Shown: in pieces, positions 1 through 5,629 of the stretch
Layout of the letters: each line of letters begins with the position of its first letter
Position numbering within the stretch: the first letter of the stretch is position 1
Virus record (IMG/VR): IMGVR_UViG_2541047846_000004
DNA length: 5,629 nucleotides
Source: a virus
Taxonomy: Duplodnaviria; Heunggongvirae; Uroviricota; Caudoviricetes
Direction: 5' to 3' (one strand)
Made by a program: the position numbers and the translations under genes
Notes under the pieces: generated by a model
Database searches by the model: none
What the model saw: only the letters and a program-made list of their open reading frames with translations
What the model was told of the DNA's origin: nothing

Positions 1-2929
<2,929 letters not shown>

Positions 2930-2947
2930 ATTTTATAACCCAGATAC

Positions 2948-2976
2948 GGGCGCCAGAAATGGCGCCTTTTTTATTT
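2948..2976 (+). terminator. Putative rho-independent terminator hairpin between J and stf
   Basis: GGCGCC (2949..2954) and GGCGCC (2961..2966) are self-complementary and form a 6-bp GC stem (a possible G-U pair extends it to 7) around the 6-nt loop AGAAAT. The stem is followed immediately by TTTTTTATTT (2967..2976). It sits 19 nt after the J stop codon. Confidence 0.6.
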
Positions 2977-2981
2977 GTGGA
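2977..2981 (+). promoter_or_regulatory. Shine-Dalgarno sequence for the stf-like gene
   Basis: GGAG lies within GTGGAGTGAATATG, 6 nt upstream of ATG 2988. Confidence 0.5.
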
Positions 2982-2987
2982 GTGAAT

Positions 2988-5048
2988 ATGGCAGTACAGA
3001 TTTCAGGCGTGCTGAAAGACGGTGCAGGAAAACCGATACAGAACTGCACCATTCAGCTCAAAGCAAAACGTAACAGCACCACGGTTGTGGTGAACACGGT
3101 GGCCTCAGAAAATCCGGATGAAGCCGGACGTTACAGCATGGATGTCGAGTATGGCCAGTACAGCGTTATCCTGCTGGTTGAAGGTTTTCCGCCTTCACAT
3201 GCCGGGGCCATCACCGTGTATGAGGATTCTAAGCCGGGGACATTGAATGATTTTCTGGGCGCTGCAACAGAAGATGATGTTCGTCCGGAGGCACTGTATC
3301 GTTTTGAAAAGATGGTGGAAGAGGTGGCACGCAACGCTGAAGCCGCCTCTCAGAGCGCAGCGGCAGCAAAGAAATCAGAAACAGCAGCGGCATCGTCCAG
3401 GAATGCGGCGAAAACATCAGAGACGAATGCAGGTAACAGCGCGAAAGCGGCAGCTTCTTCAAAAACAGCCGCACAAAACGCAGCAACAGCGGCAGAACGT
3501 TCAGAGACAAATGCCCGTGCGTCAGAAGAAGCCTCCGCAGACAGTGAAGAGGCTTCCCGCCGTAATGCAGAGTCAGCCGCTGAAAATGCCGGAGTCGCCA
3601 CCACAAAAGCGCGGGAGGCCGCAGCAGACGCAACAAAGGCCGGGCAGAAAAAGGATGAGGCTCTGTCGGCAGCGACACGGGCTGAAAAGGCGGCAGACCG
3701 CGCAGAAGTCGCAGCGGAAGTGACTGCAGAGCCCTATGCGAATATAGTGCCGCCGCTGCCTGATGTGTGGATACCGTTTAACGATTCACTGGATATGATT
3801 GCGGGTTTTTCTCCGGGCTATAAAAAAATAGCTATTGGTGACGATGTGGTTCAGGTCGCCAGTGATAAACAGGTTAATTTCAGTCGCGCATCAACGGCAA
3901 CATATATCAACAAATCTGGCGAACTGAAAACGGCGGAAATTAATGAGCCGCGATTTGAGTGTGATGGCCTGCTTATTGAGGGACAAAGAACGAACTACAT
4001 GCTCAATTCGGAAAGTCCAGCCAGCTGGGGGAAGTCATCAAACATGGATGTGCCCGAAACCGGGACAGATAGTTTTGGTTTTACTTATGGAAAGTTTGTC
4101 TGCAACGATTCTCTGGTTGGGCAAACTTCGGCTATTAATATGGCATCAATTGCTGCAACAAAGTCAGTTGATGTCTCAGGCGATAACAAGTACGTGACAA
4201 CCTCATGCCGTTTTAAAACAGAACGACAGGTAAGGTTACGTATACGGTTTGATAAGTATGATGGTAGTGCAACAACTTTTCTTGGCGATGCGTACATTGA
4301 TACGCAAACGCTTGAAATTAATATGACAGGTGGGGCTGCCGGCAGAATTACGGCACGAGTCAGGAAGGATAAGACCACAGGCTGGATTTTTGCAGAGGCA
4401 ACGATTCAGGCAATTGATGGTGAGTTAAAAATAGGCTCTCAGATACAGTATTCTCCTGAGCGGGGTGGGGCAACAGTATCTGGTGACTATATTTATCTTG
4501 CCACCCCACAAGTAGAGAATGGGCCGTGTGTATCATCATTTATTATTTCAGGAGGCAGCGCAACGACAAGAGCCAGTGATTTGGTTAGTATCCCCACCAG
4601 AAATAATCTTTATAAGTTACCATTTACTTTTTTACTTGAGATTCATAAAAACTGGGATATTGCACCAAACGCCGCACCCCGCGTGTGGGATATAGCAGCA
4701 GCCAATACCGGGCAATCAGCAATTGCAGCAATCAACAGAGGTAGTGGTAAGTTATATATGAGTCTGTCAAACCCTTCAGGCTTGTATGTTAATAGCGCAG
4801 CGACAGATGTATTTGCAGAGAAAACCACATTTGGATGTATTGCAAAAGCTGATGGTCACTTTCATGTGGTGACAAATGGTAAAGCGGTTAATGAAGTTTA
4901 TTGTGAATATAATGGTGTGACCGCTGATAAAAATATCCGATTTGGAGGGCAGACGAATACTGGAGAACGACATCTGTTTGGCCATATTCGCAATTTCCGC
5001 ATATGGCATAAAGAATTAAATGACAGGCAATTAAAAGAGGTCGTATGA
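2988..5048 (+). CDS. stf: Side tail fibre protein (Stf-like): lambda-Stf-type N-terminal attachment domain, Ala/Ser-rich stalk, divergent C-terminal lectin-like (LamG-type) receptor-binding domain
   Basis: The N-terminus MAVQISGVLKDGAGKPIQNCTIQLKAKRNSTTVVVNT.ASENPDEAGRYSMDVEYGQYSVILLVEGFPPSHAGAITVYEDSKPGTLNDFL is near-identical to my recollection of lambda Stf (MAVKISGVLKDG...). The ORF track starts at GTG 2982, but ATG 2988 matches the homologue start and has a GGAG Shine-Dalgarno. The C-terminal end (...NIRFGGQTNTGERHLFGHIRNFRIWHKELNDRQLKEV) resembles the terminal strand motif of concanavalin-A-like / LamG jelly-roll domains. Stop is TGA 5046..5048. Confidence 0.85.
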   Translation: MAVQISGVLKDGAGKPIQNCTIQLKAKRNSTTVVVNTVASENPDEAGRYSMDVEYGQYSVILLVEGFPPSHAGAITVYEDSKPGTLNDFLGAATEDDVRPEALYRFEKMVEEVARNAEAASQSAAAAKKSETAAASSRNAAKTSETNAGNSAKAAASSKTAAQNAATAAERSETNARASEEASADSEEASRRNAESAAENAGVATTKAREAAADATKAGQKKDEALSAATRAEKAADRAEVAAEVTAEPYANIVPPLPDVWIPFNDSLDMIAGFSPGYKKIAIGDDVVQVASDKQVNFSRASTATYINKSGELKTAEINEPRFECDGLLIEGQRTNYMLNSESPASWGKSSNMDVPETGTDSFGFTYGKFVCNDSLVGQTSAINMASIAATKSVDVSGDNKYVTTSCRFKTERQVRLRIRFDKYDGSATTFLGDAYIDTQTLEINMTGGAAGRITARVRKDKTTGWIFAEATIQAIDGELKIGSQIQYSPERGGATVSGDYIYLATPQVENGPCVSSFIISGGSATTRASDLVSIPTRNNLYKLPFTFLLEIHKNWDIAPNAAPRVWDIAAANTGQSAIAAINRGSGKLYMSLSNPSGLYVNSAATDVFAEKTTFGCIAKADGHFHVVTNGKAVNEVYCEYNGVTADKNIRFGGQTNTGERHLFGHIRNFRIWHKELNDRQLKEVV
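3340..3720 (+). repeat. Low-complexity Ala/Ser/Thr/Glu-rich repeat region encoding the fibre stalk (coiled-coil-like)
   Basis: The protein segment ASQSAAAAKKSETAAASSRNAAKTSETNAGNSAKAAASSKTAAQNAATAAERSETNARASEEAS... contains recurring SETNA / AAKxSE motifs. The DNA is GCN-codon rich and produces spurious long ORFs in other frames and on the minus strand (3247..3723 +, 3229..3678 -, 3350..3604 -). Confidence 0.6.
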
Positions 5049-5323
5049 AAGATTTAACTTTGAAGTTTCATGACAAACTGCAGTTTAAGGCCTTCCTGTC
5101 ATCTCTTGACTGGGAGGAGGATGAAGACCTCCAGAATAAACTGTTAGTCGATGAAATTGGTTTCACCTACACAGAAACAGGGGTAACAGAAGAGGGAGAA
5201 CCTGTCTGTGTCCGGAATGACGGTTATTTTGTCAACATTCGCATTCTTGATGACTTGTTTGATGTTTCTGTATTCTCTGATTATGTCGTGGAGCTGGAAA
5301 CACCGCTTCGGGAATGGAGCTGA
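5045..5323 (+). CDS. Hypothetical small acidic protein (92 aa), translationally coupled to stf; function unknown (candidate fibre-associated accessory or chaperone)
   Basis: Its ATG 5045..5047 overlaps the stf stop TGA 5046..5048 (ATGA overlap), and GAGG 5037..5040 precedes it. The product is strongly acidic (D/E-rich: ...DWEEDEDLQNKLLVDEIGFTYTETGVTEEGEP...). It shares the AT-rich composition of the stf C-terminal domain. I do not recognise the family. Confidence 0.6.
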   Translation: MKDLTLKFHDKLQFKAFLSSLDWEEDEDLQNKLLVDEIGFTYTETGVTEEGEPVCVRNDGYFVNIRILDDLFDVSVFSDYVVELETPLREWS

Positions 5324-5330
5324 AAGGAGG
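5324..5330 (+). promoter_or_regulatory. Strong Shine-Dalgarno sequence (AAGGAGG) for the downstream membrane-protein ORF
   Basis: AAGGAGG at 5324..5330, 5 nt upstream of ATG 5336. Confidence 0.7.
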
Positions 5331-5335
5331 AAATA

Positions 5336-5629
5336 ATGGATATAAGCCCCTTACTTCATGCGCTTTGTGCTGTGGCTGCGCAGATACTGGTTGGTCTTTT
5401 TACCGGAAACTGGGCTTACGGAGCGATAGCCGGTTGTACGTTCTTCATTGCGCGTGAACATACCCAGGCAGAATATCGCTGGATTGAAATGTTCGGGCAT
5501 GGCAAGCGAATGAATATGCCGTGGTGGGGCGGTTTTGATCCGCGAGCTTGGGATGTGGCAAGCCTGATGGATTTTGCTGTGCCGGTGGTGGCGTGTCTGC
5601 TGGTCTGGCTGTTGGTTAATCGTGGGTGA
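5336..5629 (+). CDS. Hypothetical small membrane protein (97 aa, 2-3 predicted transmembrane helices); function unknown
   Basis: ATG 5336 follows a canonical AAGGAGG Shine-Dalgarno, and the ORF ends at TGA 5627..5629, the window edge. Hydrophobic segments are LLHALCAVAAQILVGLFTGNWAYGAIAGCTFFIA and VASLMDFAVPVVACLLVWLLV, with a Trp/Gly/Pro-rich loop (MPWWGGFDPRAW) between them. GC content looks host-like, unlike the preceding AT-rich block. Confidence 0.6.
   Translation: MDISPLLHALCAVAAQILVGLFTGNWAYGAIAGCTFFIAREHTQAEYRWIEMFGHGKRMNMPWWGGFDPRAWDVASLMDFAVPVVACLLVWLLVNRG

Follow-up and report, generated by a model that had tools for sequence, protein, structure and literature searches.

The tail-fibre tips of a phage, or of a delivery particle derived from one, determine the bacteria that it is able to reach, and tip swaps fail if a needed helper protein is left behind. 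Tips of the lambda, P2, and Mu type are helped by Tfa, and tips of the T5 and K1F type by the S74 intramolecular chaperone. The window analysed here, a stretch of 5,629 nucleotides taken as a whole, is phage 21 DNA (100% identity to phage 21 over 4400–5629) and carries a side tail fibre gene, stf, for which neither solution is apparent. A sequence-only reading of this DNA had remarked that no Tfa-type gene follows stf, and Pfam searches bear this out for both the window and phage 21, with no Caudo_TAP/Tfa gene located 3' of stf; likewise, neither Stf nor the product of the next gene, ORF92, matches Peptidase_S74. The locus raises the question of what the small acidic protein encoded directly after the fibre does for the fibre tip, if anything.

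The stf–ORF92 junction in phage 21

The features of the window that bear on this question are as follows.

2982..5048, + strand: stf, side tail fibre, 688 aa; attachment domain (phage_tail_N) followed by a coiled, Ala-rich shaft and by the tip module at the C-terminus
3744..5048, + strand: portable fibre-tip module, ~434 aa, Stf residues 255–688, low GC (43.4%)
5035..5040, + strand: Shine-Dalgarno-like AAGAGG, within the 3' end of stf and 4 nt ahead of the ORF92 ATG
5045..5323, + strand: ORF92, 92 aa, ATG start, acidic, cytoplasmic, PHROG 1361/18574 family
5324..5330, + strand: strong Shine-Dalgarno AAGGAGG, serving ORF97
5336..5629, + strand: ORF97, small membrane protein, phrog_1443, 53.1% GC, with two TMDs annotated in phage 21

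Stf matches PF08400 at 1e-68 and Laminin_G_3 at residues 562–683, and its phage 21 counterpart is CPT_21_22, annotated as 'side tail fiber'. In the C-terminal module of Stf, the N-terminal frame is conserved (PLPDVWIP...STATYINKSG...EPRF...GLLIEGQRTN), the centre is variable and includes a GTA head-spike-fibre-like domain (NF048003 at Stf 331–531), and the end is LamG-like (...IRNFRIWHKELNDRQLKEVV). It is found behind unrelated fibre N-termini at 28–54% identity, forming a mosaic structure. Few fibre ends are as common in E. coli phages: the module occurs in 228 phage records and more than 2600 proteins, and no fewer than 1122 of the 5426 complete E. coli genomes contain it. Its carriers include the model phage 21 and the BASEL phages used in O-antigen recognition studies. 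An AF2 model of the 434-aa module, built from a shallow alignment, failed at a pLDDT of 41.6.

The stf gene ends in ...GTA TGA and the ATG of ORF92 occupies 5045–5047, so that ATGA is common to both genes; the phage 21 annotation places a ribosome-binding site at AAGAGG (5035–5040) and labels the product "hypothetical protein". ORF92 contains 22 acidic residues (D+E) versus eight basic ones (K+R), giving a pI of 4.1 and a GRAVY of −0.29, and its N-terminus, MKDLTLKFHDKLQFK, is charged; a signal peptide, hydrophobic leader, Cys lipobox, and TM segment are all absent from the sequence. The sequence-only reading had described a strongly acidic 92-aa ORF at 5045–5323 whose start overlaps the stf stop, and the coordinates, ATG, overlap, and pI all agree with this description. 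The AT-rich composition that it saw as common to ORF92 and the stf C-terminus is likewise present, as the GC content is 42.7% in ORF92 and 43.4% in the module (3744–5048), against 55.1% in the N-terminal part of stf, 55.7% in J, and 53.1% in ORF97, and the low-GC stretch shared by the module and ORF92 ends where ORF92 ends.

ORF92 is a real gene under purifying selection. Comparisons with unsaturated dS give dN/dS values of 0.22–0.41, and this range also holds among lambdoids that lack a distal fibre gene. The AF2 model of the protein (pLDDT 89) forms one compact alpha/beta domain with a short tail, in which the secondary structural elements follow the order beta-alpha-alpha-beta-beta-beta-beta. 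A chance ORF or decaying remnant carried along with stf would suit a short gene annotated only as hypothetical and without a known domain, but this explanation is effectively refuted by conservation down to ~30% identity, together with the dN/dS below 0.45, the pLDDT of 89, and the Shine-Dalgarno sequence with its coupled start.

In phage 21, the gene order is stf, ORF92, ORF97, and then sitABCD, and there is no distal fibre gene. ORF97 adjoins ORF92 in lambdoid and P2-like prophages only, the virulent phages being without ORF97, and it also occurs without ORF92 after other fibre types; ORF97 is no obligate part of the module.

Linkage of the ORF92 family to the tip module

Residues 1–91 of ORF92 match positions 1–91 of the 92-position phrog_1361 profile (E 8.1e-42). 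Close homologues form 48 clusters, and an exhaustive profile search of 1.84 billion representatives returned 80 representatives of the family. Its members are 85–110 aa long and share an N-terminal M-[KR]-D-[LIF]-x-L-[KR]-F motif, a G-[YW]-[FH]-V-N-[IL]-R core, and a P-x-R-x-W-x C-terminal end; the length, motifs, and position of the family are kept in many phage families, even where identity drops to ~30%. PHROG 1361 is also matched by homologues from T5-, rV5-, and Dhillon-type phages, and distant family members bridge PHROG 1361 and PHROG 18574. The family is further catalogued as VOG7707 and 'FIG00639828 hypothetical protein', and the catalogues give PHROG 1361/18574 no function and no record of a link to a fibre module. 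That the sequence-only reading did not recognize the family was fair, because PHROG 1361 is catalogued without function, and the profile searches lead only to PHROG 1361/18574.

Other searches gave no functional lead. A Pfam scan of ORF92 at E<=1 returned LUD_dom at 0.064 as its sole match, 33 family members had no Pfam match at E<=0.01, and NCBIfam and PADLOC scans and a PDB sequence search with ORF92 and the 33 members found no relative. The predicted fold matched none of the solved fibre chaperones with which it was compared and is like no known chaperone, and no family member fused to a fibre was found among the 1.84 billion representatives. Long PKD- or TPR-rich proteins returned by the exhaustive search (P0063, P0071, P0091, and others; Pfam-checked) were set aside as probably motif-level or repeat-driven, because the matches ran through numerous short segments of their PKD or TPR repeats.

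A family member lies directly 3' of a module-bearing fibre in at least eight phage lineages, whatever the N-terminus of the fibre. The module is followed by an ORF92 family gene in lambdoids, a P2-like prophage, the T1-like phages tunus and KarlJaspers, the Nonagvirus JenP2, the Dhillonvirus 'rolling', the T5-like phages SP15 and IrisVonRoten, and the rV5-like myovirus CarlMeissner; in an HK97-head/T5-like-tail prophage, the module and family gene lie between the head and tail genes, and distant metagenomic fibres (28–31% identity) also carry a family gene after the module. The two genes are adjacent in 92 of 98 loci and split by an IS in three more; of the remaining exceptions, two lie at contig ends and one has a homologue that was too distant for the profile used. 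In all intact lineages, the fibre gene and the family gene overlap by 4 nt or 1 nt or are separated by no more than ~10 nt, and no promoter-like or terminator-like site lies between them. A narrow-alignment scan of species-representative genomes yielded three loci only (two in Escherichia ruysiae and one on a stray contig), all of which adjoin a module-bearing fibre.

The sequence-only reading had named two observations that would speak against a fibre-linked role, namely homologues in non-fibre contexts and stf C-terminal homologues that routinely lack the small ORF. No homologue outside a fibre context was found in the loci examined, and fibre-tip homologues without ORF92 comprise only IS-disrupted or truncated copies and the first of two tandem module-bearing fibres in one locus (L104), in which a single family gene is present for both fibres.

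The module and the ORF92 family have been gained and lost together in three phage groups. The rV5 fibre gp41 and its CarlMeissner counterpart bas48_0026 are 91% identical over ~1000 aa, yet gp41 ends in Peptidase_S74 with no small ORF, whereas the CarlMeissner allele has the module and a 110-aa family member. The Dhillonvirus EE09 has neither the module nor a family gene, and 'rolling' has both. In the P2-like prophage (L107), the module, ORF92, and ORF97 stand in place of the gpH tip and gpG, and a 74-aa Caudo_TAP remnant of gpG is left further downstream of ORF92. Together with the synteny, these swaps bear out the co-inheritance with a lectin-like fibre tip that had been proposed from the sequence.

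Within the module, ORF92 identity tracks that of the frame (r=0.82 for residues 1–80 and r=0.71 for the last 39 residues) more closely than that of the swappable centre (r=0.42–0.57), which is consistent with a factor that serves this architecture in general and is not specific to one receptor. In one locus (L004), however, ORF92 is 93% identical, whereas identity is 44% over the module and only 25–35% in its centre; as ORF92 can thus be paired with very different centres, the linkage signal could in part reflect nothing more than physical linkage to the stf 3' end.

Candidate roles of ORF92

Because the synteny is independent of phage type and fibre anchor, the start is coupled, and the two genes are gained and lost together, ORF92 is very probably the dedicated helper or partner of the tip, with an activity that is predicted. 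The common GC content, purifying selection, and co-variation with the frame support the same reading, as does the absence of fusions and of a signal peptide or TM segment. Genomic context suggests more specifically, at about even probability, that ORF92 is a dedicated, translationally coupled partner of the phage 21 Stf tip module and, most likely, a small trans-acting assembly factor. ORF92 would be translated from the late mRNA that also encodes the fibre, keeping pace with each fibre chain, and would bind the conserved frame of the module (its first ~80 and last ~40 residues), with the invariant C-terminal P-x-R-x-W tail as a possible contact; it may then aid the folding or oligomerization of the tip, or its solubility, until the fibre is mounted, and may leave the fibre after assembly. 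Points against an assembly factor are that lectin-like beta-sandwich domains often fold unaided and that the two tandem fibres of L104 have a single family gene between them. The sequence-only reading had offered a dedicated chaperone or adaptor; of this, the dedicated partnership stands on the synteny and the swaps, while our preference for a chaperone over an adaptor is inferred.

The adaptor itself, considered possible but rather doubtful, would make ORF92 a structural virion component, that is, a small adaptor or cap kept on the module, either docking a distal fibre or forming part of the receptor-binding tip, as gp38 of the T2/S16 type does. In most virulent phages, the gene after the ORF92 family gene encodes a short S74 fibre, and an adaptor role therefore fits the gene order equally well; the order of module fibre, ORF92, and Peptidase_S74 short fibre recurs in T1-like, T5-like, Nonagvirus, and HK97-head phages. 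In IrisVonRoten, Gp24 has been modelled as a distal T-shaped fibre on the module-bearing proximal fibre Gp22, with the 92-aa Gp23 left unexplained (PMC11990801). Stoichiometric translational coupling and a conserved C-terminal tail motif would also suit a docking subunit. However, lambdoid, P2-like, and Dhillonvirus members keep ORF92 under purifying selection with no distal fibre gene after it, and a chaperone fits the same synteny data equally well.

A small, strongly acidic protein made 1:1 with the fibre and limited to this lectin-like module could also act inside the cell to mask or inhibit the lectin domain, shielding a glycan-binding or aggregation-prone surface during synthesis and being displaced on assembly or lysis. 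We consider this improbable, and we regard with the same reserve the purpose that such a mask might serve, which would be to keep new fibres off cytoplasmic or periplasm-bound glycan precursors and off each other. ORF92 co-varies with the conserved frame, not with the variable and presumably glycan-binding centre, and a mask is operationally hard to tell from a chaperone; to our knowledge, the masking of fibre lectins has no precedent.

The sequence-only reading had also considered that the small size and negative charge fit an anti-defence or immunity-type protein. ORF92 would then be an anti-defence, immunity, superinfection-exclusion, or lysogenic-conversion 'moron' hitch-hiking at the stf 3' end. 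DNA-mimic anti-restriction proteins are similarly small and acidic, ORF92 of lambdoids lies at the edge of the moron-rich b region near ORF97 and sitABCD, and exclusion factors such as Cor or Llp can be small genes beside receptor-binding genes (PMC8594841). The family nevertheless sits amid the late structural genes of phages that are strictly virulent (T1-, T5-, and rV5-like) and, in loci L005–L009, between the head and tail genes; it is always coupled to the same fibre module and never occurs elsewhere. As these late structural operons belong to virulent phages, the protein lacks a signal peptide, a lipobox, and any TM segment, and a PADLOC scan gave no match at E<=0.1 for ORF92 or ORF97, the proposal is unsupported; an anti-defence role is unlikely, and a hitch-hiking moron of any kind has a very low probability.

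Returning to the dedicated partner, a broader proposal may be advanced tentatively, at somewhat less than even probability: PHROG 1361/18574 would be an unrecognized family of fibre partners acting in trans, be it as chaperones or as subunits bound to the tip, that are obligatory for a widespread, horizontally exchanged lectin-type module and act via the P-x-R-x-W tail on its invariant frame, so that one protein would service many receptor specificities. If so, the module and ORF92 would form a portable two-gene 'tip cassette', and a simple rule for host-range engineering would follow, namely that the small ORF be moved with the tip whenever a module tip is transferred between phages. It would also represent a third solution to fibre-tip assembly, besides Tfa and the S74 self-chaperone, and an obligate helper or subunit would fill an annotation gap of thousands of 'hypothetical proteins'.

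Comparison with known systems

A described counterpart is found in IrisVonRoten (Bas32), in which the Gp22 module is 52% identical to phage 21 Stf 255–688 and the following 92-aa gene product is 49% identical to ORF92. Its proximal fibre Gp22 has a 'galectin-like' C-terminal domain and its T-shaped distal fibre is Gp24, and the BASEL paper on this phage does not discuss the 92-aa protein (PMC11990801). Phage 21 differs in having no distal fibre gene, with ORF97 and then sitABCD in its place. No published virion proteomics able to tell a chaperone from a structural subunit was found: the papers concern EE09, whose fibre is without the module (PMC10673088), AKFV33, of which four gel bands only were analysed (PMC3326045), and rV5, which has the S74 allele without the small ORF (PMC3606486). 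No statement on the ORF92 protein was found in the literature on DT57C LtfA/LtfB, in either BASEL paper, in the phage 21 genome announcement, or in work on lambda STF chimeras. The 225-aa 'putative lateral tail fiber chaperone' of KarlJaspers was rejected as a true chaperone, since it carries an S74 domain and represents a short fibre, is not a Tfa, and is absent from lambdoids.

Superinfection-exclusion lipoproteins of the Cor/Llp type are located in the envelope, unlike ORF92, which has no lipobox signal peptide, and DNA mimics such as Ocr and ArdA are early or leading-region gene products with a DNA-mimicking fold, features that ORF92 does not share. Like gp38 of T2, T6, and S16, ORF92 is a small protein whose gene comes straight after a fibre gene (the distal one in the case of gp38), and it could stay bound to the tip; unlike ORF92, gp38 is larger and has Gly-rich receptor-binding loops, the two have no sequence similarity, and co-variation of ORF92 with the variable tip region is not seen.

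Tfa-type proteins (lambda Tfa, P2 gpG, and Mu gpU; PF02413 Caudo_TAP) resemble ORF92 in that the gene lies directly 3' of the fibre gene and is co-transferred with the tip, and in the presumed role of helping the fibre tip assemble; in L107, ORF92 even sits between the fibre and the gpG remnant. However, ORF92 has no sequence or profile similarity to Tfa, is a single domain of 92 aa in contrast to the two-part (N/C) Tfa of ~175–195 aa, and would serve a lectin-like beta-sandwich module instead of a Tfa-dependent tip. By sequence and profile, ORF92 is not a Tfa. Peptidase_S74 (PF13884; T5 pb1, K1F endosialidase, and DT57C LtfA/LtfB) occupies an equivalent end-of-fibre position, but ORF92 is translated as a polypeptide apart from the fibre, from a start of its own preceded by a Shine-Dalgarno sequence, and shows neither an S74 motif nor any sign of autoproteolysis. 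In Vequintaviruses, the S74 end and the module with its small ORF are alternatives on a 91%-identical fibre.

ORF92, its genomic setting and its family

ORF92 (5045..5323, + strand, 92 aa) lies directly after the side tail fibre gene stf (2982..5048), which finishes GTA TGA; the small gene begins at the A of GTA, leaving ATGA common to both genes, and AAGAGG stands 4 nt 5' of its start. The sequence-only reading had described a small acidic ORF at 5045-5323 that overlaps the stf stop, and both features are confirmed by the ORF call, by a composition of 22 D+E against 8 K+R (pI 4.1), and by the overlap itself. The AT-richness that it was said to share with the C-terminal domain of stf is also borne out, as GC content is 42.7% in ORF92 and 43.4% in the final 434 stf codons, against 53.1-55.7% in the flanks (early stf 55.1%, J 55.7%, the gene after ORF92 53.1%), and the low-GC island stops precisely where ORF92 ends. 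Across 4400-5629 the window matches Escherichia phage 21 (OL657228) at 100% identity, as it does several lambdoids of prophage origin, and the phage 21 gene order is as follows.

K, I and J (central fibre), first in the order
stf, CPT_21_22, 'side tail fiber', after J
CPT_21_23, 'hypothetical protein', after stf; this is ORF92
CPT_21_24, 'putative membrane protein', after CPT_21_23
sitDCBA, other strand, after CPT_21_24

This order contains no tfa gene and ORF92 is not a Tfa-type tail fibre assembly chaperone, in line with the earlier remark that Tfa is missing where it would be expected. In phage 21-like phages (7322-10771 in phage 21, and L002-L004), ORF97, the membrane protein gene that follows ORF92, is directly succeeded on the opposite strand by the entire sitABCD operon for iron/manganese transport, a metabolic moron located at the stf-att junction. 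The J gene of the window carries a tandem duplication of 724 bp (copy 1 ~440-1163, copy 2 1164-1887, 3 mismatches) of a segment that is single-copy in phage 21 and its relatives, where window 1-3000 aligns to 2276 bp. Because 724 is not divisible by 3, the reading frame is broken, and J is split into two ORFs, 19..1164 (which stops) and 1106..2929; phage 21 itself is therefore not the source, which is either a defective prophage or an artefact of assembly.

ORF92 is a member of a catalogued family without assigned function. PHROG 1361, whose function is blank, matches it end to end (E 8e-42) and PHROG 18574 matches more weakly; profile searches give only these two, and the sequence-only reading had likewise not recognised the family. 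ORF92 and 33 diverse family members have no relative in Pfam, NCBIfam, PADLOC or by PDB-sequence search. Close homologues form 48 clusters, with identity down to 54%, all from E. coli or Shigella, and searching 1.84 billion representatives exhaustively with the profile yielded 80 proteins, almost all full-length ones being 85-110 aa. The family alignment has a conserved N-terminal motif (M-[KR]-D-[LIF]-x-L-[KR]-F), a core motif (G-[YW]-[FH]-V-N-[IL]-R) and a motif at the extreme C-terminus (P-x-R-x-W-x). AF2 predicts with confidence (pLDDT 89) a compact alpha/beta domain (beta-alpha-alpha-beta-beta-beta-beta), followed by a less ordered C-terminal tail, and dN/dS, taken only where dS is unsaturated, is 0.22-0.41.

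Large repeat proteins, either PKD-rich (P0063, P0091, P0107, P0110) or TPR-rich (P0071, P0094), also matched the profile, each in many short segments; a strand motif resembling 'GY.VN.R..D', also present in PKD repeats, is apparently responsible, and these hits were treated as spurious. Coliphage-type fibre and ORF92-family sequences also occur in four 'Campylobacter phage' records (MG065692, MG065653, MG065676, MG065652) and one 'Listeria phage' record (OR847806); with up to 99% identity to Vequintavirus genes, these are probably mislabelled or contaminated assemblies.

The fibre-tip module and its linkage to ORF92

At its C-terminal end, phage 21 Stf has a portable module of ~434 residues that is carried by >2600 proteins, behind N-termini as varied as phage_tail_N (lambdoids), P2 gpH-type PF12571, PF03406, T5-, T1- or rV5-type fibre shafts, or none. 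The NCBIfam model NF048003, 'phage head spike fiber domain' (GTA_spike_fiber), recognises its centre (Stf residues 331-531; window 3972-4574) at E 1e-14, so that an E. coli tail-fibre tip has a domain in common with the Rhodobacter gene-transfer-agent head spike; weak tblastn matches to the centre occur in RcapMu, Synechococcus phages and Aeromonas phages. The module end is LamG-like by Pfam, and the same domain in IrisVonRoten Gp22 has been termed 'galectin-like' (BASEL paper, PMC11990801). A conserved frame (PLPDVWIP...STATYINKSG...EPRF...GLLIEGQRTN and ...IRNFRIWH..L.D.Q.K) is what persists in the most distant fibres. In phages D2 and Lambda_4C10 (L002 3442-5564, L003 3554-5970), and also in 4A7, 1W and 3W, a mobile element of three ORFs interrupts the module near its residue 391 and puts ~2.6 kb between stf and ORF92; these phages were isolated viable and can therefore do without the side fibre, as laboratory lambda can.

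An ORF92-family gene lies directly 3' of every intact module copy examined, in the following settings.

Lambdoids: module, then ORF92-family gene
Prophage with HK97-type head and T5-like tail genes: pair placed between head and tail genes
T1-like tunus and KarlJaspers: module and ORF92-family gene
Nonagvirus JenP2: module and ORF92-family gene
Dhillonvirus 'rolling': module and ORF92-family gene
T5-like SP15 and IrisVonRoten: module and ORF92-family gene
Myovirus CarlMeissner: module and 110-aa family member (hhalign probability 98%)
Metagenomic fibres of only 28-31% identity: ORF92-family gene follows
Aeromonas T5-like phage: small ORF after the fibre is PHROG 18574

The HK97-head prophage and phage 21 have unrelated fibre N-termini and share 54% identity in the fibre C-terminus and 57% in the small ORF. 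Module and ORF92 are adjacent in 92 of 98 loci and split by IS in three more; where they are not adjacent, stf carries an IS insertion, the contig ends (two loci), or the homologue is the distant Aeromonas one, which the narrow profile failed to detect. At the junction the two genes overlap by 4 nt or 1 nt or are separated by no more than ~10 nt, and no promoter-like or terminator-like site was found between the fibre gene and ORF92. One metagenome contig (SRR5125608_62; L104 1691-5297) has tandem fibre genes of 679 aa and 416 aa, both with the module, and a single ORF92-family gene after the second, directly followed by holin and amidase genes. By tblastn, ORF92 matches 160 phage records, and among the matches listed every hit in an annotated region adjoins a gene labelled tail fibre or tail protein. 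The main interpretation of the sequence-only reading, a dedicated fibre-tip partner, was to fall if homologues occurred in non-fibre contexts or if homologues of the stf C-terminus routinely lacked ORF92; neither was seen, and it survives as a proposal from comparative genomics.

The module is itself mosaic. In L004, ORF92 is 93% identical and the module centre just 25-35%; in L057, the centre is 95% identical and ORF92 53%. In 60 distinct pairs, the correlation of ORF92 identity with module identity is highest for the first 80 module residues (r=0.82), lower for the last 39 (r=0.71) and lowest for residues 281-395 (r=0.42). Plain linkage to the stf 3' end accounts for part of this correlation, and lineage history may account for part of the remainder. 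We read the pattern as suggesting that ORF92 serves the module architecture, not one receptor specificity.

Allele swaps and the role of ORF92

In Vequintaviruses, rV5 gp41 (L112 14200-18018) and CarlMeissner bas48_0026 (L095 1-4601) are 91% identical over ~1000 residues, past which the sequences differ: in rV5 the allele has a Peptidase_S74 intramolecular chaperone end and a 99-nt gap without a small ORF, whereas the CarlMeissner allele has a LamG-type module end and the 110-aa family member, in which a C-terminal extension replaces the R-x-W ending. Among Dhillonviruses, the EE09 fibre has neither module nor family member and 'rolling' has both. In a P2-like prophage (L107), the module (88% identical to that of phage 21) is joined to a gpH-type N-terminus; ORF92 (90%) and ORF97 come next, and of the Tfa-type gpG only 74 aa remain after them. 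The family gene thus comes and goes together with the module tip, and ORF92 appears to fill the place held by other chaperoning solutions at other tips.

The chances that ORF92 is an assembly factor are about even. Stf and ORF92 would be produced in step from the late transcript via translational coupling, and ORF92, perhaps through its invariant C-terminal tail, would bind the module's conserved frame and aid tip folding, oligomerisation or solubility; we infer this binding and activity, and its fate after assembly. What the data establish is the gene itself, its coupling to stf, its synteny with the module, their joint gain and loss, and the selection on it.

A virion-borne adaptor or tip subunit is possible, at appreciably lower probability. 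It is favoured by the short fibre with a Peptidase_S74 end that comes next after ORF92 in T1-like, T5-like, Nonagvirus and HK97-head phages (in KarlJaspers, the gene annotated 'putative lateral tail fiber chaperone'); CarlMeissner has a 196-aa tail fibre protein in this place, and the 'rolling' record stops 0.8 kb past the small ORF, with no gene annotated in that stretch. It is weakened by the lambdoids, which have no distal fibre and keep ORF92 under purifying selection, so that ORF92 function cannot depend on one. Lambdoid and P2-like prophages instead have ORF97 (5336-5629, 97 aa, phrog_1443, strong Shine-Dalgarno, 53% GC) next after ORF92. ORF97 accompanies ORF92 in these prophages, is absent from virulent phages, also occurs without ORF92 after other fibre types (phage HannyBb, many E. 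coli genomes), and may be a prophage-specific exclusion or conversion factor.

That ORF92 masks the lectin inside the cell is improbable. An unrelated function as a moron or in anti-defence, the latter raised as an alternative in the sequence-only reading, is more improbable still. The anti-defence idea fails on context, since the genes lie in late structural operons of virulent phages; ORF92 also has no export signal and no match in PADLOC or among DNA-mimic folds. That ORF92 is not a gene is scarcely conceivable, since the PHROG match, homologues, motifs, AF2 fold and dN/dS mark it as a genuine protein-coding gene.

Comparison with known fibre chaperones

Fibre genes commonly have helper genes after them, and ORF92 is therefore no surprise in kind; the finding is nevertheless real, and the family is distinct, widespread, unannotated and tied to an important receptor-binding module. 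At least 1122 complete E. coli genomes carry ORF92 in RefSeq under the label 'hypothetical protein', and no discussion of the family was found in the literature: the phage 21 genome announcement makes no statement on ORF92, and the BASEL papers, one of which describes the galectin-like domain and distal fibre of IrisVonRoten (PMC11990801), do not mention its 92-aa Gp23. The role of ORF92 is easy to test. ORF92 resembles both Tfa and the S74 intramolecular chaperone in position and inheritance and differs from both in profile, size and fold, and it would be their trans-acting functional analogue.
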